A stretch of 64,000 nt of DNA from Candidatus Hermodarchaeota archaeon (GTDB lineage: Archaea > Asgardarchaeota > Lokiarchaeia > Sigyniarchaeales > SOKP01), in assembly GCA_048885925.1 (NCBI GenBank), contig JBHLLG010000011.1:1200-65199 (forward strand), given 5' to 3'. The notes beneath the pieces are model-generated. The model did no database searches. It saw only the letters and a list, made by a program, of their open reading frames with translations, and had not been told where the DNA came from. Positions 4,095 to 62,644 of this stretch are shown one piece after another. Both the position numbers and the translations under genes were made by a program. The stretch's first letter is position 1, and each line of letters begins with the position of its first letter.

Positions 4095-7070
4095 ATGAGT
4101 AGAACTGAAGAAATTACATATCCTCCTGAAGATATTCTAAATCCGAGAAATGGAAAAACAGATTATGAATATATAATCCTTTGGATGTTAAACGCTAATG
4201 ATTTATGCCAGTGGAGCGATTTTACGGTAGAAATTAGTGGATCAACCTTACATGGATATTTAAAGAAACTTTTAAACAAAGGTTATATTGACCGCCCCGA
4301 AAGAAATCAATATAGAATTACCGCAAAGGGGAGAGATAGGTTTAGTGAAGCGACCTATGATAGAAAATTGGGAAAAAGAAAATTAAAATATCCTCCAAAA
4401 GCTATTCTAAAGAGGCGGAACTATGATCATTGGATTTTATGGATGTTATCTAATAACTATTCATGCAAATGGTCTGATTTTAAACAAGAGCCGCTTTCAA
4501 TTAACCAATCCTCTTTATCTAGTACTCTAAATATATTATTGGATAAGCAATTTGTTGTTAGAAATAATAAAGAATATACAATTACTTCTACAGGAAAGAT
4601 TGAGTATCTAAGAATATTGAAATTGTATGATTTAGATCGGCAATCTATTTTAGAGCAAGAGAGTAAAAGAATTGAAGAAATCACTGAAAAGACAAAGGAA
4701 TTTTTTAATAAATATAAGATTGAAATCGCAGAACTGAAGTTCAGGTATCTTGATCTTGTTTTAAAGTTACCTTATTCAAAAGTAAAAACAGTGTTAAAAG
4801 ATGAGCAAGATTTTAATAAAATTTTACTATTCCTTGCAATCAATCATCCAGATAATTATCCTAATTATATTTCACCAGAAGTATTTTCTGGAAAATATGA
4901 TATTGATCGAATATCGCTTAATTATTACATAAATGAAATTGTTGATAATCAATTTTTCCAAATAGAATTCTTTAAGTTAGAAGATGACAAAGATAGGATT
5001 TATTATTTCCAAAAAAATGAACCACTTGAAAAATTACTTAATGCTACTGTTGAGAAGCATATTACAAAAATCACTTATTTGAATAAATTTCAAAGAAATC
5101 CAACTATTAATATTGATCAATTGTTAGAGAAGATTATAAATGATATATGTATTCATATCTTTCATAATGGTTTGAGAGAATCATTAAGAGATTTTTTACC
5201 AAATTATATAAAAAACTCAGCATATAAAATCGAATCTGAAAAAAAATTAATTGATAGTGAGGCAAAATTAGAAGGTTTTGTGTGGCAAAATATTTTTGAG
5301 GAGTTTCAAACTTTTGAACCATCAGCATCAGTAAATAATGGTAGTTTAGATGAATATTATTATACATTGGATAAACAAATTTTTGATGTTTTAGATATTA
5401 TGTTTATCTCAAAACTGAATTTTATCACAATTCAAGAATTTAAAAATACGGCTAATCTTAAAAAAGTAAAGATTCTTGATGAATTTATCAAATTATTATA
5501 TAGAAGTAAAATATCAAGAGCAAAAAATCTATATAGAAAGACTTTATCCGAATTAGATGAAATTCAGAAATTAATATTAAATGATATTCTTGTCACAGAA
5601 GAGTGTAATTTTAAAAAGTCTATTAACATTACAACAGAACTAATTAGGAAATTTCCATCAAAGTTTATTGGTTATTTATTACAATCTATTTCTTACTTTC
5701 TAATGGATGATTATGAAAACGCATTAAAAGTTATTGAAGAGGGATTTAAAAATGCACCCCATGTCCTTTTACTTTGTCAAAAAGCGCAAATATTTATTAA
5801 AGTTATGAGACAGGAAGAGATATTAAGTGAAATTAATGAAGCATTGTTGAATAATCCGCAACATATTTTATTACTACGAATTAAATATGCGCTTATTCTA
5901 ACTCATACTTTTAATAATTACCTAAGAAGTGGTGACGATCCCTTAAATGTCATAAATAATACGATAAAAATACGCCCAAATGATAAAGAATTATTAGTTT
6001 TAAAGAGTTTATTCTACTTTTTGATAAACAAATATAAAGAAGGAAAAGAACTTCTAATTAAAGAAATAGGATTTAATATATTTAATAAGAATCCTAAAAT
6101 AGATATACCTGCTTTTTTTCTTTTAGTTTTTTCTTATACTGCTAAAGGTAAATTCGATAAAGCTTTTAAAATTGCTAATCAGTTAAATGACATTTATCCA
6201 AATCACCCGATATCATATTTAACAAAAGCAATTGTAATGGGATATAATTTAATTTATGGATTTAAACTTCAAGATGCAGATATTGATACATTTAAAGAAT
6301 TAATTGAAAAAGCTATTTCACTTGAACGTCTTAACTACAAAAAGGTTAAGTATCTTCTGTTTCAAGCACGGGTATTTCATGAAATTAAGTATGAAGGTTC
6401 AATTAATATAATCAATAATGCAATTGATATAATTCCTACATTATCAAAACTTTATGCTGCTAAAGCTTATTTTTTAATGACTAATGGTAAAGAATTTGAA
6501 GCATTAAATTTAATTGATGAGACAGTTCACAAAAATCCTAATTTAAAATATATACTGCATTTTCAAAAATCTTTTATCCTTTTTGGAATGAAAAGATATG
6601 AAGAAAGCTTGAAAATTATAGATGAATTACTAAAAACACACCCAAATGGTATTAAATTACTCAATAATAAAGCTATATTCTTAGCTTTTATGGGCAAAAA
6701 AGATGAAGCCATTGAAACTGTTGAATATTTAATAAGTCTTAATCCAAATTTGGGAAATTCATATGATACATACGGAGAAATTTTAATGAATTTTAAAGAT
6801 TATGAGAATGCAATTAAAAAATATGAACATGCATTAAAAATAGAATCATTAGGGGGTTTTACTTTTCAAACCTGTGCAAAACTAGGCTTATGTTATCAGG
6901 AGCTAAAAAAGTATGATCAGGCTCTAAAGTATTTTGAAAAAGGTAAATTGCTAACAGAACGAATGATTCCTAGTGAAAGGGAACTTTATTTACATAAATC
7001 AGAAGAATATCTTTCAGAACTCAAGATATTAATGAATAAGTCAAATGATTATAATAATATGAAAAATTGA
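4095..7070 (+). CDS. Tandem winged-helix + long TPR-repeat protein
   Basis: 991 aa. Two similar N-terminal modules: YEYIILWMLNANDLCQWSDF..STLHGYLKKLLNKGYIDR...YRITAKGRDRF and YDHWILWMLSNNYSCKWSDF..SSLSSTLNILLDKQFVVR..EYTITSTGKIEY. The C-terminal ~500 aa contain many TPR-like units, e.g. NSYDTYGEILMNFKDYENAIKKYEHALKIE and CAKLGLCYQELKKYDQALKYFEKG. Confidence 0.7.
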   Translation: MSRTEEITYPPEDILNPRNGKTDYEYIILWMLNANDLCQWSDFTVEISGSTLHGYLKKLLNKGYIDRPERNQYRITAKGRDRFSEATYDRKLGKRKLKYPPKAILKRRNYDHWILWMLSNNYSCKWSDFKQEPLSINQSSLSSTLNILLDKQFVVRNNKEYTITSTGKIEYLRILKLYDLDRQSILEQESKRIEEITEKTKEFFNKYKIEIAELKFRYLDLVLKLPYSKVKTVLKDEQDFNKILLFLAINHPDNYPNYISPEVFSGKYDIDRISLNYYINEIVDNQFFQIEFFKLEDDKDRIYYFQKNEPLEKLLNATVEKHITKITYLNKFQRNPTINIDQLLEKIINDICIHIFHNGLRESLRDFLPNYIKNSAYKIESEKKLIDSEAKLEGFVWQNIFEEFQTFEPSASVNNGSLDEYYYTLDKQIFDVLDIMFISKLNFITIQEFKNTANLKKVKILDEFIKLLYRSKISRAKNLYRKTLSELDEIQKLILNDILVTEECNFKKSINITTELIRKFPSKFIGYLLQSISYFLMDDYENALKVIEEGFKNAPHVLLLCQKAQIFIKVMRQEEILSEINEALLNNPQHILLLRIKYALILTHTFNNYLRSGDDPLNVINNTIKIRPNDKELLVLKSLFYFLINKYKEGKELLIKEIGFNIFNKNPKIDIPAFFLLVFSYTAKGKFDKAFKIANQLNDIYPNHPISYLTKAIVMGYNLIYGFKLQDADIDTFKELIEKAISLERLNYKKVKYLLFQARVFHEIKYEGSINIINNAIDIIPTLSKLYAAKAYFLMTNGKEFEALNLIDETVHKNPNLKYILHFQKSFILFGMKRYEESLKIIDELLKTHPNGIKLLNNKAIFLAFMGKKDEAIETVEYLISLNPNLGNSYDTYGEILMNFKDYENAIKKYEHALKIESLGGFTFQTCAKLGLCYQELKKYDQALKYFEKGKLLTERMIPSERELYLHKSEEYLSELKILMNKSNDYNNMKN

Positions 7071-22252: not shown

Positions 22253-23017
22253 TTATGTTTCATTATTCTTTAGGTCTCTGAGTTGAGATATGGCATGCTC
22301 ACCATAGTTAATAACCAATTCAAGGAATTCTCGATATCCTGTTGCTGATGCAATATTTTCTGGTATACTTTCCTTCAACTCAGGATTATTAGTAAATCTC
22401 ATGGTAATTGGCAATATTTGTCGTCTCTTACTAAATATAAACCTATAGGAAGTGAATTCTTCCATTAACTCACTAAAATGATCATATTTTTTAATAAGAG
22501 CAATAAATTTTTTCTTATTATCATCTGTTAACTCTTTGAACCAGTTAGGAAGATAAAGTGGTTCACAATATTTAAGTAGTGGATCTAACTTTTCAGTAAT
22601 TTGGTTTATAAAATATCTCTCATACCATGTGTCTAAAAAAGCTTCTTGGAATTGATCCCAGGTAACCAACTCTAAATTTGTAAACTCTGATGCTTTAAAT
22701 GCACCTGTTTGAAATCCAACCATACTGATAATATAACCGATATTCGCACCAATATCTGTCAATACTGTTCTGAAACTATGAATTATTTGTTGAGGAACTC
22801 TATTTTGCCAATATTTACACTCACATATTATGATATATTTCCTTCTATCAATTATTTCTTCAGCATAAACGTCAATTTCAACTTCACCTCTTACATGTTT
22901 AATTACCTTCTCTATCTCAACAGAGAATCCACATTCTTCTAATATTTTTGCTACTTCATTTTGAAGTTCTTGCCAGTTTTTAGGTTCTTTAGATGTAATC
23001 ATATGATATTTACTCAA
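22253..23017 (-). CDS. Mrr-like (type IV) restriction endonuclease domain protein
   Basis: WQELQNEVAKILEECGFSVE...GEVEIDVYAEE...YIIICECKYWQNRVPQQIIHSF...GYIISMVGFQTGA is the Mrr_cat pattern (D...E.K core). The start is ambiguous: TTG at 23017 or ATG 15 nt downstream at 23002. Confidence 0.7.
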   Translation of the reverse strand: MSKYHMITSKEPKNWQELQNEVAKILEECGFSVEIEKVIKHVRGEVEIDVYAEEIIDRRKYIIICECKYWQNRVPQQIIHSFRTVLTDIGANIGYIISMVGFQTGAFKASEFTNLELVTWDQFQEAFLDTWYERYFINQITEKLDPLLKYCEPLYLPNWFKELTDDNKKKFIALIKKYDHFSELMEEFTSYRFIFSKRRQILPITMRFTNNPELKESIPENIASATGYREFLELVINYGEHAISQLRDLKNNET

Positions 23018-35631: not shown

Positions 35632-35772
35632 ATGAGTGAAATTGAATTAAGTCGATCAAAAAATAGAAGGATACTATTCATTATATTTTTCTCTGTTGCT
35701 GCCTTGATAACTATAATTACCGTAATAACAGTTGTGTTTTTTAGTGCAGAGAATGGAGGAGGAACTGGATGA
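35632..35772 (+). CDS. Small single-TM protein (not in ORF track)
   Basis: ATG...TGA, 46 aa: MSEIELSRSKNRRILFIIFFSVAALITIITVITVVFFSAENGGGTG. The basic N-terminus plus one clean TM helix is more protein-like than the overlapping minus ORF 35574..35780. Confidence 0.3.
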   Translation: MSEIELSRSKNRRILFIIFFSVAALITIITVITVVFFSAENGGGTG

Positions 35773-36121
35773 GGATGCATAATTTTATTTTCAAAAGTAA
35801 TGAATTCTGTAAATTATCGAAATTTAACGTGGTTAAACAAACAAATGTTTAGATTTTTAATTTATTTAATATAAATACCGAATGGAATGATGCTTGCGAA
35901 TAAATTTTAGTGGCAGGAGGACCAACCTTGCAATGGTTTCGGTAATAAAAGTTGATATCAAGAAAAAGATTATGAAGTTGGTTAAATATTAAACAATTCA
36001 CCTCTATTAAAATAATTTGTACTTTTATAAAATTAGAGGTTTATTCTTTTTTTTACTTTTAAATCAAGTATAATCAAATTATAAAGTAAATATTTAAAAG
36101 ATCTATGATTATTCGATAAAT

Positions 36122-54114: not shown

Positions 54115-57100
54115 ATGTTAAATTTGCAGAGTAATGTTTTGGTCATTGGAGGAGGAATCTCAGGGATACAGGCATCTCTAGATCTAACCAAGTTAGGTTT
54201 TAGAGTATATTTAGTCGAAATTCAACCAACAATAGGAGGTACAATGGCCCAATTGGATAAAATATATCCCACCCTAGATTGTAGTTTATGCATCCTTGCG
54301 CCAAAAATGGTTGATGTGTATAGAGATCCAAATATAGAATTATTTACTTATTCTTATGTTAAAAAAATTACTGGAAATGCTGGGAATTATACAATTACGG
54401 TTATAAAAAAGCCAAGATATATAAAAGAAGAGATTTGTAAAGGATGTGGTGATTGTGGAACCGTTTGTCCAGTTAGAGGAATCCCTAGCGAATTCGATAC
54501 CAATTTAAAAACTCGAGGAGCTATTTATATTCCTTTTCCGTCATCAGTACCTCCAATATATATTATCGATGATTCAAAATGTTTATATTTAAATTATCAG
54601 ATATGCGGGCTTTGTGCTAAAGTTTGTACTGCAGATGCTATAGATTTTTTACAAAAATCAGAAGAAATTACATTAAATGTAGGAGCAATCATTATTGCTA
54701 CAGGAAATAATCAGGAAATGCCAGAAAAATATACCAATTTTGCTGGTTCCTCTCCTAATGTCTTATCTAATATGCAATTTGAACGTCTTCTTTCTGCGAA
54801 TGGGCCTACTGGAGGTCAAATCATAAGATTAGATGACAAAAAACATCCTAAATCAATTGGTTTTATACAGTGCGTGGGTTCTCGAGATTTTCATCATCTT
54901 GAATGCAAAAAATATTGTTCTGCAATTTGTTGTATGAATTCGGCAAAGGAAGCAATTGTTGTGAAGGAACATAATCCAAATATTGAATGTTATATTTTTA
55001 ATACAGAAATCAGAGCAAAAGGTAAAAATTTTTATGAGTTTATTGAAAAAAGTAAGAATGAATATAATGTTAAATATATAAATGGACATGTTTCATATAT
55101 TAAAGAGAATTTAGATAATGGAAAATTAAGATTATATTATGAAGATATTGATAAAGGAAAAGTTGGAACTTTTGAAGTAGATATGGCTGTTTTAGCAAGT
55201 GCATTATCTCCGACCCCTTCGTATTATGAACTTTTAAAACAACTTAATGTAGATTGTGACGATTTAGGATATATTCGTGAGGAAGACCTCATTTTACTTG
55301 AAAAAAAGAATGTATTTGTTTCAGGTTATTCTAAAAAACCTAATGATATCCAAATGGCTGTTGCAGAGGGTTCTGCATGTGCAGCAAAAATTAGTGAAAG
55401 ATTTTATCCTTTCAGATTTCAAAATATTAAAAAGGTAGAATATCCCCCAGAAATAACAGTAAGGTTAGAGGATGACCCGCGTGTTGGTATTTTAGTTTGT
55501 CAATGTGGTATCAATATTGGAGGAATTGTTAATGTTTCTGAAGTCGTAGACTATGTTTCTAAATTGCCCTATGTAGTACATGTCGAAGAAAATATGTATT
55601 CATGTAGTTCAGATTCACAAGAACGGATTAAAGAATTAATCATTAAATATAATCTTAATAGATTTATAGTTGCATCTTGTACCCCTCGAACACATGAACA
55701 ACTTTTTAAAAATACTCTCAGAGAGGTTGGATTAAATCCATTTTTATTTGAACTAGTAAATATAAGAAACCAAGATTCTTGGGTTCATCAAAACGAACCT
55801 AAAAAGGCAACTAAAAAAGCCTGTGATTTAATTAGAATGTATTTAGCAAAGGTGATTAACCTAAAACCATTAGAAACCATTAAAGTTAAAGTTAAACAGT
55901 CAACTCTAATAATTGGTGGAGGCATATCAGGAATTACTGCCGCACATAATTTAGGAAATCAAGGGTTTGAGGTTTATCTTTTGGATAAGAGATCTATTCT
56001 TGGAGGCAGCGCACTTGAATTTATAGATTTATACTATATACCTATTACTAAAAATGAAATTTTACAGCAAATTAATGATTTAAAGAATAATTCTAATGTT
56101 CATATTTTATTAAACTCTGAAATTGTTGATGTTCAAGGTTATGTTGGAAATTATCATGTTAAAGTTAAAAATATACAAGAGAATTCAAAAGAACAAATCC
56201 TCAATGTAGGTACAATAATAGTAGCAACAGGAACAAAGCAAATAAAGACAGTTAAATGGAAAGAATTATCAGAACGATATCCCAAACGTGTCCTTACTCA
56301 AACAGAACTTACTGCAATAAATGATGTAGATATTCCTGAGTTTAAGGATGCTACAATAATATTATGCGTAGATCAAAGGAGAGATGTATTTAATGACGCA
56401 GAATACATAAAAACTTATTGTTCAAATATTTGTTGTGGAGTTGCATTAAAAAATGTTGAAAAACTATTAAATATCAATCCTAATGCCCAAATTCACATTT
56501 TATATAGAGAATTTCAATTTACAGATTTAAACGCTGAAAATCTATGTCGAGGGCTTCGGAAGAAAGCAATATATGAAAGATATCACTCTATTAATGATAT
56601 CAAAATCAGTGATGAAAAAGATCACTTCCATATTATATATAAAAATATAAGCGCTCAAACAGATATAGAGTATAATACAGATTTATTAATATTAGCTACT
56701 CCTAACGTTCCTTTTGATGATACTAAAAAATTAGCTAAATTATTAAAGGTATCCACAAATAAAGATGGATTTTTCTTAGAAGCAGATGCAAAGCTTAGAC
56801 CAATAGATTTTGCCACTGAAGGTATATTTCTATGTGGAGGAGCTCATTGGCCAAAATGGATTGGAGAAAGTATAATTCAAGCTTATGGTGCTGCCGGAAG
56901 AGCAACAATAATTATGGCTAAAGGAGAAATAGAAACTGAATCTATAACTTCCTATATAGACGAGGAAAGATGTATCGGTTGTGGTAAATGTATTGAGATT
57001 TGCCCATATAATGCTATTGAATTGATAGAAAGTCGTAAAAAAATGGGTTTATACAATATAAGTTTAAGAAAGTCACGTATAATTAAGGCTCTTTGTAAGG

Positions 57101-57228
57101 GTTGCGGAGCTTGTGTTGCAGAGTGTTCAGTTGGAGCTATTGATCAGAATCACTTCAGTAAATTTCAAATTAGCAAAATGATCGACTTATTAACTGATAT
57201 TGATATAGTAGATTATGAAATTATTTAA
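54115..57228 (+). CDS. hdrA: Tandem HdrA-HdrA fusion protein (1037 aa)
   Basis: Two FAD dinucleotide motifs (VLVIGGGISGIQASLDL, LIIGGGISGITAAHNL). Module 1 has YPTLDCSLCILAPKM and an inserted ferredoxin (CKGCGDCGTVCP). Module 2 begins with the HdrA N-domain (GILVCQCGINIGG...IVASCTPRTHE...NIRNQDSWVH) and ends with a 2x[4Fe-4S] domain (CIGCGKCIEICP, CKGCGACVAECS). Confidence 0.85.
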   Translation: MLNLQSNVLVIGGGISGIQASLDLTKLGFRVYLVEIQPTIGGTMAQLDKIYPTLDCSLCILAPKMVDVYRDPNIELFTYSYVKKITGNAGNYTITVIKKPRYIKEEICKGCGDCGTVCPVRGIPSEFDTNLKTRGAIYIPFPSSVPPIYIIDDSKCLYLNYQICGLCAKVCTADAIDFLQKSEEITLNVGAIIIATGNNQEMPEKYTNFAGSSPNVLSNMQFERLLSANGPTGGQIIRLDDKKHPKSIGFIQCVGSRDFHHLECKKYCSAICCMNSAKEAIVVKEHNPNIECYIFNTEIRAKGKNFYEFIEKSKNEYNVKYINGHVSYIKENLDNGKLRLYYEDIDKGKVGTFEVDMAVLASALSPTPSYYELLKQLNVDCDDLGYIREEDLILLEKKNVFVSGYSKKPNDIQMAVAEGSACAAKISERFYPFRFQNIKKVEYPPEITVRLEDDPRVGILVCQCGINIGGIVNVSEVVDYVSKLPYVVHVEENMYSCSSDSQERIKELIIKYNLNRFIVASCTPRTHEQLFKNTLREVGLNPFLFELVNIRNQDSWVHQNEPKKATKKACDLIRMYLAKVINLKPLETIKVKVKQSTLIIGGGISGITAAHNLGNQGFEVYLLDKRSILGGSALEFIDLYYIPITKNEILQQINDLKNNSNVHILLNSEIVDVQGYVGNYHVKVKNIQENSKEQILNVGTIIVATGTKQIKTVKWKELSERYPKRVLTQTELTAINDVDIPEFKDATIILCVDQRRDVFNDAEYIKTYCSNICCGVALKNVEKLLNINPNAQIHILYREFQFTDLNAENLCRGLRKKAIYERYHSINDIKISDEKDHFHIIYKNISAQTDIEYNTDLLILATPNVPFDDTKKLAKLLKVSTNKDGFFLEADAKLRPIDFATEGIFLCGGAHWPKWIGESIIQAYGAAGRATIIMAKGEIETESITSYIDEERCIGCGKCIEICPYNAIELIESRKKMGLYNISLRKSRIIKALCKGCGACVAECSVGAIDQNHFSKFQISKMIDLLTDIDIVDYEII

Positions 57229-57240
57229 TTTGGGGGATTT

Positions 57241-57720
57241 ATGCTGATAAAAATTAAAAAAGTAAGAAATAATGAATTTGAGCCTAAGATACTTGTTTTT
57301 TGTTGTAATTGGTGTAGTTACGCTGGTGCAGACTTAGCAGGAGTCTCGAGATTCCAATATCCCCCAAACATTAGGATTATTAGGGTAATGTGTTCTAGCA
57401 GGGTTGAACCAATATTTGTTCTACGAGCCTTTAATAATGGAATAGATGGAGTATTAATTATTGGATGTCACATGGGAGATTGCCATTATATGAAAGGATT
57501 TGAATATACTCAAGATAGAATGGATCATTTAAAGAAGTTAATAAAATGTATTGGGATTGAAGCAGATCGATTTCAATTGCACTCCATTTCTGCAAGTGAA
57601 GGAAAACAATTTTCAGAATTAATTAAAGAATTCACAGAAAGAATTACAGGATTAGGAGAATTAAAAATTCCTAAAAAATCAGGAATAATTGAATTAGAAT
57701 CTAATTATAAAACAAATTAA
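57241..57720 (+). CDS. mvhD: MvhD-type (F420-non-reducing hydrogenase delta subunit-like) [2Fe-2S] protein
   Basis: ILVFCCNWCSYAGADLAG...IRIIRVMCSSRVEP...GIDGVLIIGCHMGDCHY is the canonical MvhD/FlpD pattern. All positions are Cys, with no TGA. Confidence 0.85.
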   Translation: MLIKIKKVRNNEFEPKILVFCCNWCSYAGADLAGVSRFQYPPNIRIIRVMCSSRVEPIFVLRAFNNGIDGVLIIGCHMGDCHYMKGFEYTQDRMDHLKKLIKCIGIEADRFQLHSISASEGKQFSELIKEFTERITGLGELKIPKKSGIIELESNYKTN

Positions 57721-57734
57721 AAAGAGGAATTAAA

Positions 57735-58850
57735 ATGACTGAATTAGGGTTTCAGAAACTTGAGCAAAGCAACGTAAAAAATTTTCAGGATCTTCAGAAC
57801 GAAATAATTAAAACTAATAAATGTTGTGCATGTGGAGCTTGCATAGCATATTGCGAGAGTCAAAGTTTTGATGTTATTGAGATGAACGGCTACATTCCTG
57901 AGTTTAAATCAGAAAAAAGTGTTAATAATTGTACTAAATGTGGTGTCTGTTATTATATTTGCCCTCAAACTAATATATTATTAAAAGAATTAAATGATAC
58001 TTATTGTATTGAAGATAAAATTGGGCATATTTCCAAAATTTTTGCTGCTAAAACAACAGACTTAGCATTAGAAAAAGTTGGACAGGATGGAGGTGTTGTT
58101 TCGGCAATTCTAACATTTTTATTTGAAAAACATAAAATTGATGCAGCAATTGTTTCAGAATATAATGCCAACTTTGAACCTGTCCCAAAAATTATATTTG
58201 ATAAAGAAGATTTATTCAAATCAGCAGGTACACGTTATTCTATTTCTCCTCAAATATTCCCTTTAAAAAACTTATATACCATACCGCAAGAGATTCTTAT
58301 GAAAAAGGAAATATTTGATATTGACCAGCTAAGAATTGCATTTATAGGAACTCCTTGCCAATGTAGAGCAGTTAGTAAAATGAAGTTTTTATTCGTGAAA
58401 CCAGCTCATGTCATTAAGTATATTATAGGTCTTTTCTGTTATGAGAATTTTATTTATTCTCAACTATATGATATTTTACAAAGAGAAACAAAAGTTGATC
58501 CTACTAATATCAAGAAAACTTGGATAAAGAAGAATTTCTTTATTCAAACTAAGGATAATAAAGAATTTGAAATTAATATCAAAACTTTAAATGCTGCAGT
58601 TAGAAATAATTGCCTTGAATGTGATGAATTCACAGGAAGATTTACAGATATTAGTATTGGAGCATCTGGAGCTCCAGAAGGATATTCTATGATCCTAATT
58701 AGAACTGATAATGGAGAGAAAGTGATAAATAATATGCTTTCAAAAGGAATACTTGAACAATTTATTGTTCCATTTAACAAAACTATTGAGTGGAAAAATA
58801 AGAAATTAGATTGGTTTAATAAATTAATTTCTTTAAAAAACAAGCAGTAG
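57735..58850 (+). CDS. FrhB/FdhB/FpoF-family flavoprotein with N-terminal 2x[4Fe-4S]
   Basis: CCACGACIAYCE and CTKCGVCYYICPQ, then GQDGGVVSAIL...IAFIGTPCQCRAV...GLFCYENF...CLECDEFTGRFTDISIG (FrhB_FdhB N and C domains). Confidence 0.8.
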   Translation: MTELGFQKLEQSNVKNFQDLQNEIIKTNKCCACGACIAYCESQSFDVIEMNGYIPEFKSEKSVNNCTKCGVCYYICPQTNILLKELNDTYCIEDKIGHISKIFAAKTTDLALEKVGQDGGVVSAILTFLFEKHKIDAAIVSEYNANFEPVPKIIFDKEDLFKSAGTRYSISPQIFPLKNLYTIPQEILMKKEIFDIDQLRIAFIGTPCQCRAVSKMKFLFVKPAHVIKYIIGLFCYENFIYSQLYDILQRETKVDPTNIKKTWIKKNFFIQTKDNKEFEINIKTLNAAVRNNCLECDEFTGRFTDISIGASGAPEGYSMILIRTDNGEKVINNMLSKGILEQFIVPFNKTIEWKNKKLDWFNKLISLKNKQ

Positions 58851-58987
58851 AATCTTTATTAACAAATATTTTTAACTTTAATAAAAATAACCAATCTTTT
58901 AATCACTTCAAATTAATTTGAACTGAAGATATAAATTCATATCAATTATTATTCTATATTTTTCTGAAAACCCATACGATGGGTTAG

Positions 58988-59022
58988 TCTCCTCTCAACT
59001 AATATTTTTTTGAGAAGATCAT
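58988..59022 (-). promoter_or_regulatory. Candidate SECIS element (AUGA-helix-GA, k-turn-like) in the 3' UTR of the Sec-HdrA gene
   Basis: Minus-strand RNA 11 nt after the stop: AUGA(59022-19)-UCUUCUCA(59018-11)-AAAAAAUAUUAGU-UGAGAGGA(58997-90)-GA(58989-88). The arms form 8 pairs (7 Watson-Crick plus 1 G.U) and the apical loop is A-rich. Confidence 0.45.
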
Positions 59023-59033
59023 TCCTTTCCAGA

Positions 59034-61070
59034 TTAAGTGTGATAAGGAGCTAATGCTTCAATCTTTTTCCAAATAAGTTCAATAGATTCAATATATTCT
59101 TCCTTATATTCAAGTTCAGTATTACAAATGCCTTTTATCTCTTCAACAATTTGTTTATCTCTATAATATTTAAGATCAATTGCCCTAGCTGGACAGGATG
59201 ATACACAAACACCACATCCTTTGCATTTCAATTCATCTATTTCTGCAATTTTATCTCCATTAACCATTACAGCCTTGTAATTACATAATTTTTCACATCT
59301 ATGACAACCAATACATAGATTTTCATTTATTTCAGCAATTATTAATTCTTGAACGATTGCATCTTTTGATAGTAATGTAGATGTTTTACTCGCTGCAGCT
59401 AATGCTGTTGATACCGAGTATGGGATATTTTTTGGGCCAGCAGCACACCCACAAATATAAATTCCCATATTATTAGTTTCTTGAGGTTTTAGACATCCAT
59501 GAACTTCAGATAAAAATCCATTAATATCTTTACTTAAACCTAATGTCTCAATTAATTTTGTTGTATTCTTAGAAGGGATCATGCCCGTTGATAATACAAC
59601 AAGATCTGTATTCATTGTTATCATATCATTTGTTAAGGTTGAAGAAGCTGTAATTTTGAGGTTTTTTGTTATTGAATCTTCTCGTATATCACCAACTTTT
59701 CCTCGAATCATCATAATCCCTGCTTCTCTCACTTTTCTATAATATTCTTCATTCCCTTTATCCCATGTACGCATATCTATATAAAAAATGGCAATATTAA
59801 TATCAGGATATTCTTGTTTTAACAGTTGAGCATTCTTAAGAGCAACATTACAACATACTCCTGAACAATAAGGATTTCCTTTTAAAGATCTCGAACCAAC
59901 ACATTGAATCATAGCTACTGTTTCTGGGATTCTTCCATCAGAAATTCTATAGACATGACCCCCTGTTGGTCCAACTGGACTTAACATGCGCTCTAATTCT
60001 ATTTGAGTAATTACATCTGGATAAATTCCATATTTATAATCATTATTTTTCATAATTGGATATTCATCCCATCCTGTGGCAAGAATTACAGCACCAACTC
60101 TTATATCAATAAATTCTGGCACCTGTTCAAAATCAATAGCTTCTGCTTGACACAATTTTTGACAATTTTTGCATTCTATGCACACATTCTTATCAATTAT
60201 CGCAACTTTAGGTACAGCTTGAGGAAATGGTATATAGATTGCACTACGTTCACCAATACCACGATTGAATTCATTAGGTACTGTTATAGGACATTTTGTG
60301 GTACATAATCCGCATCCTGTACACTTTTTTTCGTTAACATAACGTGGATTTTTTTGTATTCTAACATTATATTTCCCAGGAATACCACTAAATCCAATAA
60401 TTTCACTATAAGTCAGAAGGGTTATATTTGGGTGTTTTGAAGCATTTACCATTATAGGGGCTAAAACTCATATAGCACAATCGTCAGTGGGATAAATTCT
60501 ATCTAATTGTGCCATTTTTCCACCAATAGTTCCTTCTTTTTCGATTAGAAAAACTCTCACTCCCTGATTTGCTAAATCTAATGCAGCATTCATCCCAGCA
60601 ATTCCAGCACCTATTATTAATACTGATTTCTCCACTGAAATTTTTTTATACGGAACAATCTCTAATTCTCGAGCACGATTGATACCTGCTTGTACTAATC
60701 TTATAGCTTTTTCAGTTGTATCTTTTTTATTATTTGAAGATATAAATGAGCAATGTTCACGAAAATTTACCATTTGAAAATAATATGGATTTAATCCTGC
60801 TTCAGCTAAAACTGCTCGATAAGTAGACTCATGAATTTTTGGTGTACAAGCAGCTACAACTACTCGGTTTAAATCTAAATCCAAAATATCGTTCTTGATA
60901 AGATTTTGCCCTGGATCACTGCAAGTAAAATCATTTGCTCTAGCTATAATGATATTTGGGAGTGCTTCAACATAATCTCTAATAAGGTCACAATCAATAC
61001 TGGCTCCTATATTAACTCCTCATCTGCAAATATACACTCCGATTCTTGCAATGGTCTGTTTTTCAGACAT
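59034..61070 (-). CDS. hdrA: Heterodisulfide reductase subunit A homologue, predicted selenoprotein with two in-frame UGA (Sec) codons
   Basis: Three collinear same-frame pieces: ATG 61070...ICR-TGA(61022-20)-GVNIGAS..., ORF 60468..60884 ending ...IYPTDDCAI-TGA(60470-68), then VLAPI + ORF 59034..60452. The TGAs align with Cys of VCQCGINIGG and of DCSLCILAPKM in the neighbouring HdrA (54115..57228). The full HdrA domain order is restored (678 codons). Confidence 0.85.
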
Positions 61071-61193
61071 CTAATTCACCCTTCCAAACCTCACCAAATA
61101 TTATTCTATAATAATATCTCAAGATTTTGTTTTGAGAAAAAAAACTAAATTTACATAAATGTAAGTATAATTATTTTATTGTACTTTATCCCG

Positions 61194-61270
61194 ATTAAAT
61201 AATGAATTAGAAGAGATTTAAAAAATCTGATAAGAATAATTATAGTCATTTTGACAAATGAATTTGTCAT
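61194..61270. promoter_or_regulatory. Conserved intergenic element, copy B, with a perfect palindrome
   Basis: Gap-free match to 52034-52110. It contains TGACAAAT-GA-ATTTGTCA (61252-61269). A related site, ttgacaatcatatttatca, lies at 61418-61436, 75 nt upstream of the ATG at 61511. Confidence 0.45.
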
Positions 61271-61510
61271 TATTATATAAAATGTATTGATTTGGTCTTT
61301 GATTTGATCTTAATCCAATATAGTGTTTACCTTTTTCTTTGTATTGTGCAAATTATCGATAGTGACAATTATGTTTTATGGGAAAACTTTTAGTCAAGAT
61401 GATCATATTTATATAGTTTGACAATCATATTTATCATAGAGATCATAAAAATTATTAAAATAGTCATAATAAATTTTATGATTATAAAATTAATTTAGTG
61501 ATTTTTCATA

Positions 61511-62644
61511 ATGAGGATAAAGACTTTTAAAGATTTAATTGAAGAAGTTCATAAACCAGGTATTTGTCAAGAATGTGGGGGTTGTGTTAGTTTTTGTAAT
61601 TCAATTAAATATGATGCAATTGGGTTTAAAAAGCCTAATTCACCTCCGGAGTACTTAAATGAAGATAAATGTCTTGAATGTGGAATTTGTTATTTTATAT
61701 GCCCACAGACACATATTTTAGATGAGGATTTAAATAAAACTTATAATTTTTCAGATAGTACAAAAATGCCTTTAGGATTTATAGATAGTATTTACTCTTG
61801 CCAATCTTTAGATGATGAATTTTTAAAATATGGAACAGACGGAGGTGTTGTGAACTCTATCATTAATTATTTAATAGAAAAAAATTTTATTGAAGGAGCA
61901 ATTGTAGCAAAAACAACATCACCTTTTAATAGGGAATCGATAATAGCTAGAAACAAAAAAGATTTAATTGGTGCTTCGGGTGTCAAATTAGATATAACTC
62001 CTCAGCTAGAAATTGTACAAAAGTTTCATACTTATACGAGTTCATTACCCAGTTTAAGGCATTATAAATTTAAAAAAATAGCATTAGTAGGCACACCTTG
62101 TCAGATTTATACGATTAGATGTATGCAAGAATTAGGTATTATTCCATCTGAGAATATCGAGATTTGTCTAGGATTATTTTGTTATGAGAATTTCTTTTTT
62201 GACAAAGAGAGGGTAGAGAAATTCGAAAAATACTTTAAGCTTAAGTTTAAAAATATTGAAAGGGTAAACATAAAGGAAAATTTAATTATCAACATAAAAA
62301 ATAAGAAAAATCCTCAAAAAACTATTCATATTCCATTTGAAAAATTAACTGATTATTCACGTCCAGCTTGTAGTGTTTGTAAAGATTTTACGAATATTTA
62401 CGCAGATATTTCATTTGGAGGATTAGGTTCACATGATAAATATACAACTGTAATCACACGCACTAAAAAAGGGGAGGAATTAATCAATAAAGCGCTGCGA
62501 GCAGGTGTAATTAAAAGATTTAGATTAGATAGCTCCAATTTAAAGGATTTAAAAGAAACATTAATACAATTTACTCAGTTGAAGTTAAAGCGAACAGAAG
62601 AAAATATGAGATATAAGATGATAACAGGGAAATCGTCATCATGA
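61511..62644 (+). CDS. FrhB/FdhB/FpoF-family flavoprotein with N-terminal 2x[4Fe-4S] (paralogue of 57735..58850)
   Basis: CQECGGCVSFCN and CLECGICYFICPQ, then GTDGGVVNSII...IALVGTPCQIYTI...GLFCYENFF...CSVCKDFTNIYADISFG. Confidence 0.8.
   Translation: MRIKTFKDLIEEVHKPGICQECGGCVSFCNSIKYDAIGFKKPNSPPEYLNEDKCLECGICYFICPQTHILDEDLNKTYNFSDSTKMPLGFIDSIYSCQSLDDEFLKYGTDGGVVNSIINYLIEKNFIEGAIVAKTTSPFNRESIIARNKKDLIGASGVKLDITPQLEIVQKFHTYTSSLPSLRHYKFKKIALVGTPCQIYTIRCMQELGIIPSENIEICLGLFCYENFFFDKERVEKFEKYFKLKFKNIERVNIKENLIINIKNKKNPQKTIHIPFEKLTDYSRPACSVCKDFTNIYADISFGGLGSHDKYTTVITRTKKGEELINKALRAGVIKRFRLDSSNLKDLKETLIQFTQLKLKRTEENMRYKMITGKSSS

Follow-up and report, generated by a model that had tools for sequence, protein, structure and literature searches.

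A probable eukaryote-like selenocysteine insertion sequence with a predicted three-helix fold downstream of a stand-alone Sec-HdrA gene in Candidatus Hermodarchaeota archaeon

In Lokiarchaeota, the selenocysteine insertion sequence (SECIS) was defined by Mariotti et al. in 2016 (lokiSECIS; PMC4989117) as a 9-bp stem directly preceded by AUGA and directly followed by GA or AA, with an apical loop of 11 nt that opens with five positions mostly taken by A and closes with an ultraconserved G, as a rule after an A, the whole lying near the stop codon. All standard SECIS tools miss every one of these elements (PMC4989117). The Asgard eSECIS-like type I of Huang, Xiao and Zhang (2024; PMC11227280) has a GA_[G/A]A core, a stem of 7–15 bp with at most 2 mismatches and a loop of 8–20 nt, and AUGA_AA variants of it were noted in hdrA/frhD genes of Lokiarchaeia. 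The Asgard hdrA gene is said always to be followed on the same strand by vhuD or frhD, whose SECIS it shares (PMC4989117, PMC11227280). Here we describe a 64-kb stretch of DNA (29% G+C; called the window below) on contig JBHLLG010000011.1 of Candidatus Hermodarchaeota archaeon, in which a hairpin of this kind follows a gene for a selenocysteine (Sec)-containing HdrA. This kind of SECIS has been known since 2016 and the HdrA element is a further case of it. We put the probability at about 0.88 that the hairpin is a Sec-insertion signal of the eukaryote-like Lokiarchaeota type whose functional unit is a three-way junction of about 71 nt. The gene, its two UGA codons and the parts of the element are as follows.

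59034–61070, minus strand: Sec-HdrA coding sequence (CDS), 677 amino acids (aa), two in-frame TGA codons, stop codon TAA at 59036–59034 (reading frame, Pfam, orthologues)
61020–61022, minus strand: first UGA, Sec17, in the N-terminal CxUGxNI Fe-S motif (...GVYICR-U-GVNIG), 2.0 kb 5' of the SECIS core
60468–60470, minus strand: second UGA, Sec201, at the canonical HdrA Sec position (...PTDDCAI-U-VLAP), 1.45 kb 5' of the SECIS core
59027–59033, minus strand: helix I (H1), 5' strand UCUGGAA, beginning right after the stop codon (RNAalifold and RNAfold; CUG/CAG becomes CCG/CGG in orthologues)
59019–59026, minus strand: 5' side of a kink-turn (k-turn)-like core, with junction A59026, G59025 (position -2b), G59024 (-1b), the bulge A59023, A59022 and U59021, then G59020 and A59019
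59022–59019, minus strand: AUGA of the core (sequence)
59010–59018, minus strand: helix II (H2, the SECIS upper stem), 5' strand UCUUCUCAA (sequence, RNAfold, covariation)
58999–59009, minus strand: apical loop AAAAAUAUUAG, 11 nt, five leading A and a terminal AG
58990–58998, minus strand: H2, 3' strand UUGAGAGGA (sequence, RNAfold, covariation)
58986–58989, minus strand: 3' side of the core, with G58989 (2n), A58988 (1n), C58987 (-1n, pairing with G59024) and U58986 (-2n, a G.U with G59025)
58970–58984, minus strand: helix III (H3), hairpin ACCCAU-CGU-AUGGGU (RNAfold, RNAalifold, covariation)
58963–58969, minus strand: H1, 3' strand UUUCAGA, adjoining H3 (RNAalifold, RNAfold, covariation)

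The window element shares every defining feature of the lokiSECIS and lies only a few nucleotides past the stop codon of a Sec-HdrA-family gene, and it likewise has the core, stem length and loop length of the Asgard eSECIS-like type I. A preliminary description, made from the letters of the window, had placed a eukaryote-like AUGA-helix-GA SECIS 11 nt past the stop codon, with 8 bp and a possible closing A-U; the sequence and the coordinates bear this out (the 11 nt between TAA and AUGA are 59033–59023 on the minus strand), and RNAfold returns the helix as 9 bp with one G.U under an 11-nt loop. Its remark that no classical SECIS with a GAA/A bulge could be found in this 3' untranslated region (UTR) also held: a scan for the euryarchaeal GAA_A type in the UTR gave one loose AU-only match, which was rejected as being at chance level, the loose model matching 119 times in the window. 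However, helix I, which had not been evident by eye, was recovered by folding, where UCUGGAA pairs with UUUCAGA and closes over the second hairpin; H3 can be extended by a pair A58985–U58969 at the cost of H1. A 77-nt segment carrying the element folds with z = -2.77 and a minimum free energy (MFE) of -19.8 kcal/mol, and both the unconstrained MFE structure and the centroid are the three-way junction. A strict pattern (ATGA, 9 pairs with G.U allowed, an 11-nt loop, then GA or AA) matches once on the two strands of the window, while a mean of 0.045 is expected from 200 dinucleotide-preserving shuffles of the window; once the loop is also required to read AAA...G, 0 of the 200 shuffles carry a match. 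A second, one-mismatch match on the minus strand (22490–22524, ATGA-TAATAAGAA-AAAATTTATTG-CTCTTATTA-AA, inside the ORF at 22253–23017) was rejected as chance: such matches are expected 0.75 times per window, and it has neither helix I nor helix III and no match to the covariance model described below.

The HdrA protein carries FAD/NAD Rossmann and 4Fe-4S ferredoxin domains according to Pfam, and the second UGA falls on the canonical Sec position of HdrA, at about 200 (PMC4989117). Orthologues of this HdrA subfamily are included in the Sec-HdrA set of Huang et al. 2024 (PMC11227280). Both TGA codons are kept in the close orthologues, among which two variants occur: L009 has GGA (Gly) at the first Sec position, and L011 has a third in-frame TGA (...FVS-U-GDKR), which may be natural variants or assembly errors. 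Separately, the first Sec codon of the window gene lies within a loose hairpin inside the CDS (60988–61023, minus strand; ATGA-GGAGTTAAT...ATTGATTGT-GA with one mismatch), probably a coincidence.

The search for orthologues, limited to a single genome for each species and using the last 472 aa of HdrA as query, gave 47 loci, nearly all labelled Promethearchaeota or other Asgard, with a top protein identity of 95%. The SECIS motif follows the HdrA stop codon with a spacing of 11 nt in 29 loci and with other short spacings in the rest. Most orthologues have AUGA_AA, as is the case for the variants noted in PMC11227280, and the window element has AUGA_GA. In an alignment of 36 HdrA UTRs the conservation covers the first 70 nt or so past the stop codon, at a mean identity of 83%, and RNAalifold without hints predicts H1, H2 and H3 on it. 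Moreover, 92.9% of the cells in this alignment are paired, versus 57–60% when the partners are slid by one column, and compensatory changes occur in 10 of the 22 pairs (three in H1, four in H2 and three in H3). The orthologous H2 stems UCUUCUCAA/UUGAGAGGA, UCCUUUCAA/UUGAAAGGG and CUCUUUCAA/UUGAGAGAG illustrate this, as does GCAUGCUGGC/GCCAGCAUGG in a genome of the Jordarchaeia. In H1, columns 10 and 76 hold U-A in 24 sequences and C-G in 11, and columns 11 and 75 change from GC to AU. Thus the covariation in orthologous UTRs on which the preliminary description had made its call depend is found in all three helices. As side observations, the UGA of the AUGA core doubles as the stop codon of the HdrA ORF in L013 and L017, and two loci with an HdrA identity of 79% match the Asgard genomes in Sec-HdrA, SECIS and synteny but carry other labels, namely L023 (DATKTW010000119.1, 'Candidatus Nanopelagicaceae bacterium') and L040 (JAENXI010000076.1, 'Candidatus Bathyarchaeota archaeon'), which are probably mis-binned Asgard contigs.

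A covariance model including the three helices was built from the HdrA-only UTR alignment (R1). It places an element directly 3' of HdrA in 38 loci with 80–110 bits. Matches of about 25 bits in L019, L046 and L028 were rejected, since they have no AUGA and many broken pairs. In the window, R1 gives 99.5 bits to the HdrA element and has one further match, at 35869–35956 on the plus strand (52.8 bits, E about 1e-8); there is no match after the Cys-type HdrA2, MvhD and FrhB genes of the window, nor after the Cys-type homologues L045 and L047. The further match provides the shared structure next to another TGA-containing gene of this genome that the preliminary description had proposed to look for, and it comes with an unannotated small ORF.

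35632–35874, plus strand: 80-aa ORF, unannotated, with an in-frame TGA at 35770–35772 (...GGGTG-U-GC...)
35876–35944, plus strand: second three-helix SECIS, with the AUGA at 35887–35890, 12 nt past the TAA of the ORF (R1, 52.8 bits)

In this second element H1 is UACCGAA/UUCGGUA, the 3-bp stem is UGG/CCA and H3 is ACC/GGU, and the 9-bp stem has two mismatches and is followed by the loop AUAAAUUUUAG and then by GA. The ORF product, MSEIELSRSKNRRILFIIFFSVAALITIITVITVVFFSAENGGGTG-U-GCIILFSKVMNSVNYRNLTWLNKQMFRFLIYLI, has an N-terminal membrane helix and no Pfam match. A search with its 46-aa N-terminal part as query found in public databases only a 46-aa truncation of it (a hypothetical protein of 'Candidatus Hermodarchaeota archaeon') and one 80-aa homologue (P0002/L128). 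The homologue keeps the TGA, which the pipeline had translated as W, together with the open frame and the stop position; its substitutions show no third-codon-position bias, and the contig stops short of the SECIS. We list the ORF as a candidate orphan selenoprotein. Its single membrane helix and Gly-rich stretch with U may loosely resemble the layout of eukaryotic SelK/SelS.

The same structure follows other genes in other genomes. In the same-strand HdrA-VhuD tandems of L034, L035 and L041 (the last in the Jordarchaeia), R1 matches downstream of Sec-VhuD. The contig of L041 (JAHAWR010000001.1) bears three-way-junction SECIS-like elements at 5343–5440, 12 nt past HdrA, and at 5940–6034, past VhuD; the HdrA element there, identified by hand, has H1 GGGUC/GACCC, a 3-bp stem GCC/GGC and H3 CUGGC/GCCAG, so that the helix sequences are entirely different. 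For Sec-PrxL, ten Lokiarchaeia proteins from the supplement of Huang et al. were aligned and metagenome contigs were scanned, giving 80 loci, all of which carry FFRGNW-U-xx-C/U. R1 matches over its full length right after the PrxL stop codon in nearly all of them, with 24–51 bits, and the additional matches at these loci belong to tandem PrxL paralogues. Here H1 reads (U)CCC(R)AA/UU(Y)GGG(A) and H3 (A)ACC...GGU(U). It was also seen that the 5' strand of helix I lies inside the last codons in most PrxL genes, and that the ORF ends at the UGA within the AUGA core in L051, L058, L066, L082, L089, L106, L108 and L123. In every locus examined, the element is 3' of a gene with an in-frame UGA at a Cys-homologous position, and none follows a Cys-type gene.

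The element set covers HdrA, VhuD, PrxL and the small orphan ORF and comprises 107 distinct elements. Because MAFFT misaligned helix I of the PrxL elements, whose junction lengths vary, per-sequence folding and a model-fitted alignment were used instead. With only H2 constrained, 94 of the 107 fold with an H1 of at least 4 bp and an H3 of at least 3 bp (HdrA, 36/37; VhuD, 3/3; small ORF, 1/1; PrxL, 54/66). Across the families H1 reads UCUGAA/UUCAGA, ACCGAA/UUCGGU, CCCAA/UUGGG, ACCCC/GGGGU or GGGUC/GACCC, with double changes in all six H1 pairs. In the model-fitted cross-family alignment of 98 elements, 91.5% of cells are paired versus about 50% when slid and 66.5% when shuffled, double changes occur in 21 of 22 pairs, and the covariation score is 0.66 versus 0.24 in shuffles. 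These data show that the element is under purifying selection for base pairing and is found after UGA-containing genes only, an association that suggests a role in Sec insertion.

The AUGA and the 3' RA of the core are invariant in the 107 elements, and the geometry of a 9-bp stem with an 11-nt loop is kept in 99 of them; the loop starts with AAAAA in 75 and ends with AG in 88. A G stands three positions before the UGA and a C directly 3' of the RA, each in 106 of 107, which makes the -1b:-1n pair G:C in 106; the lone exception is the HdrA element of L041 in the Jordarchaeia, in which the pair is swapped to C:G. Exactly three bases, R-A-U, lie between the -1b G and the G.A pairs. As the next pair outward, the HdrA and VhuD types have A:U or G:U and the small-ORF element has G:C; the PrxL elements are mixed. 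In the window the core thus consists of G59024:C58987, the bulge AAU, G59020.A58988 and A59019.G58989. Position 2n is A in 34 of the 107 elements. As judged from sequence, the core fits a standard k-turn, with a Watson-Crick pair closing the C helix, then three bulged nucleotides, tandem G.A/A.G pairs and H2 as the NC helix.

Several known systems resemble the element in part. With the k-junction (Wang et al. 2014; Li et al. 2023, PMC10573300) it appears to share the tandem G.A/A.G pairs, the third helix on the non-bulged strand and the three-way junction, and in the HdrA type a C and a U separate A1n from the third helix, at the place of the connectors c1 and c2 of k-junctions. However, these C and U appear to pair with -1b and -2b, forming a C-stem of 1–3 bp before the junction, and 2–3 unpaired nucleotides lie between this stem and helix I, so that the likeness is topological only. 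Form 1 of the eukaryotic SECIS (Rfam SECIS_1 and others) is similar in its position in the 3' UTR, in a presumed action on distant UGAs (more than one per mRNA), in the AUGA/GA quartet, in the unpaired A bases at the start of the loop and in a predicted helix I below the core. It differs in that the internal loop of the window element carries an extra hairpin on its 3' side, that the 3-nt bulge is closed directly by a G:C pair, and that there is no Rfam match. The VhuD SECIS of Methanococcales and Methanopyrus has the G..AUGA / RAC signature in common with the window element (PMC4989117), whereas the GAA_A bulge and the G/C-rich upper stem of the euryarchaeal VhuD SECIS are both lacking from it.

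In the proposed mechanism, the SECIS would be transcribed within the 3' UTR of the HdrA mRNA and the RNA would fold into the k-turn-like core, with AUGA opposite GA, under the 9-bp helix with its A-rich 11-nt loop. By analogy with other SECIS elements in 3' UTRs, it would recruit the Sec-specific elongation factor and Sec-tRNA(Sec), directly or via an adaptor, and both UGA codons, 1.45 and 2.0 kb upstream, would then be decoded as Sec and not as stops. The functional unit of about 71 nt (59033–58963) would include the stem of 1–3 bp with its near-invariant G:C, which leads into the k-turn and H2, and the third hairpin, which follows the core on the non-bulged strand and precedes the 3' strand of H1. 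Since H1 sets in at the stop codon or, in some genes, already within the CDS, a terminating ribosome would have to melt at least H1, which may bear on the cycling of the element. More speculatively, the third helix could keep the abundant L7Ae off the k-turn, since the k-junctions tested were not induced to fold by L7Ae, whose binding their third helix is thought to block (PMC10573300).

The following points weigh against the reading of the HdrA element as such a SECIS. No SECIS family, the eukaryotic models included, was found by Rfam at E ≤ 10 on 58700–59200, where only sub-threshold noise appeared (gltS, isrJ, snoRNAs), and none at the gathering score in the whole window; the match above threshold to SECIS models that the preliminary description had looked for was therefore not obtained. 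This miss is not a refutation, because the standard tools miss all Loki SECIS (PMC4989117). The AA 3' of the stem in most HdrA orthologues places a non-standard A.A at 2b:2n, H2 is shorter (9 bp) than in eukaryotic SECIS elements, and for the adaptor step no SBP2 homologue was found in Lokiarchaeota (PMC4989117). The 98-element cross-family alignment was fitted to the model structure and consists of related sequences, so that its pair counts lean to that structure. In addition, H1 is short and A/U-rich, and some H1-like pairing still forms in 58% of folds when the 5' flank is taken from another gene family.

This last point bears on the best-surviving alternative, which we regard as unlikely, namely that only the published hairpin is the SECIS, that the second hairpin with its U-run is a separate 3'-end or terminator element, and that H1 is fortuitous A/U-rich pairing in closely related UTRs. 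U-runs often end archaeal transcripts, T-rich tracts lie past many PrxL elements, and the HdrA UTRs are 83% identical on average. The three-way junction appears in 88% of folds with the native 5' flank (mean -19.2 kcal/mol), in 58% with the chimeric flank (mean -17.1 kcal/mol) and still in 46% with a shuffled one (mean -16.1 kcal/mol), while the native elements are more stable than their own flank-shuffled versions in 105 of 107 cases. However, the H1 covariation described above reaches beyond the U-run (UA to CG in columns 10/76, 11 sequences; GC to AU in columns 11/75), the H1 sequence switches across families with double changes in every one of its six pairs, H3 always directly adjoins the 3' strand of H1, and the three-way architecture is kept in the Jordarchaeia despite an unrelated primary sequence. 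The preliminary description had allowed the second hairpin to be a terminator: the hairpin is real (AACCCAU/AUGGGUU, 58985–58969), but the terminator role did not hold up, because a simple terminator scan does not flag it and its U-run is paired in the covarying H1.

That the element is instead a site for a k-turn protein such as L7Ae, or a C/D-box-like small RNA, serving mRNA stability or regulation and not UGA recoding, is very improbable. The k-turn sequence features of the core, and weak sub-threshold snoRNA matches nearby on the opposite strand, would agree with it; against it, the element follows UGA-containing genes (HdrA, VhuD, PrxL and the small ORF) in every locus examined and no Cys-type gene, no pairs of C box (RUGAUGA) and D box (CUGA) are present, and the Rfam snoRNA matches are far under the gathering scores. 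Although relaxed parameters find 93 loose ATGA...RA hairpins in the 29% GC window, a chance hairpin in an AT-rich intergenic region is refuted by the single strict match against 0.045 expected and by the retention of the element, at the same offset and with compensatory changes, in 38 genomes, which leaves this reading a negligible probability.

A broader proposal is that the Asgard SECIS is a conserved three-way junction of about 70 nt, with H1 at or inside the stop codon, a k-turn into the 9-bp H2 and a third hairpin on the non-bulged strand, shared by HdrA, VhuD, PrxL and an orphan gene in Promethearchaeia and Jordarchaeia; we hold this tentatively, at somewhat less than even odds. The lokiSECIS text (PMC4989117) has no lower helix or third hairpin, both of which are conserved and covarying here. 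The main text of Huang et al. (PMC11227280) gives a generic 'lower stem' and 'internal loop' and family-specific lower-stem pairs for frhA and selD, with no third helix or G:C closing pair. Hence neither the three-way junction nor its third helix, nor the 3-nt bulge closed by G:C, appears to be described in the main texts of the two papers; nothing relevant came up in a full-text literature search combining SECIS with 'three-way junction', with depiction in figures or supplements being possible.

The gene order around the HdrA element is also distinct from the published one. The next gene past the SECIS is convergent, an FrhB-like gene (57735–58850) preceded by a Cys-type MvhD gene and a 1037-aa Cys-type HdrA-like gene, and a divergent FrhB-like gene lies upstream of Sec-HdrA. 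The lokiSECIS paper (PMC4989117) describes a SECIS on VhuD only, with HdrA always followed by VhuD, whereas here HdrA stands alone with its own SECIS. The conserved synteny covers 54115–62644 of the window: the divergent FrhB-like gene, the stand-alone Sec-HdrA with its SECIS and the convergent operon of the Cys-type HdrA-like (1037 aa), MvhD/FlpD and FrhB-like genes. The stand-alone arrangement was found in at least 20 loci (L001, L003, L005, L006, L010–L014, L016, L018, L021–L025, L037, L039, L040, L042 and L044), and such a Sec-HdrA, not followed by vhuD/frhD and served by its own SECIS, departs from the published hdrA-vhuD/frhD rule.

The SECIS supports HdrA as a selenoprotein with two Sec residues, and annotation pipelines tend to split such genes at the UGA. 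With the stand-alone Sec-HdrA, the Asgard selenoproteome is extended by a conserved locus type, and the full-element model uncovered a second, unannotated candidate selenoprotein gene in the same window. If H1, the G:C-closed k-turn and H3 are indeed functional, the published search models for Asgard SECIS elements would use about half of the conserved signal, and the 'missing' helix I, which ties the Asgard element to its eukaryotic counterpart, would be in place. The three-way junction would then be a likely platform for an archaeal SECIS-binding factor, and the comparison of archaeal and eukaryotic SECIS elements would gain a concrete and testable intermediate.

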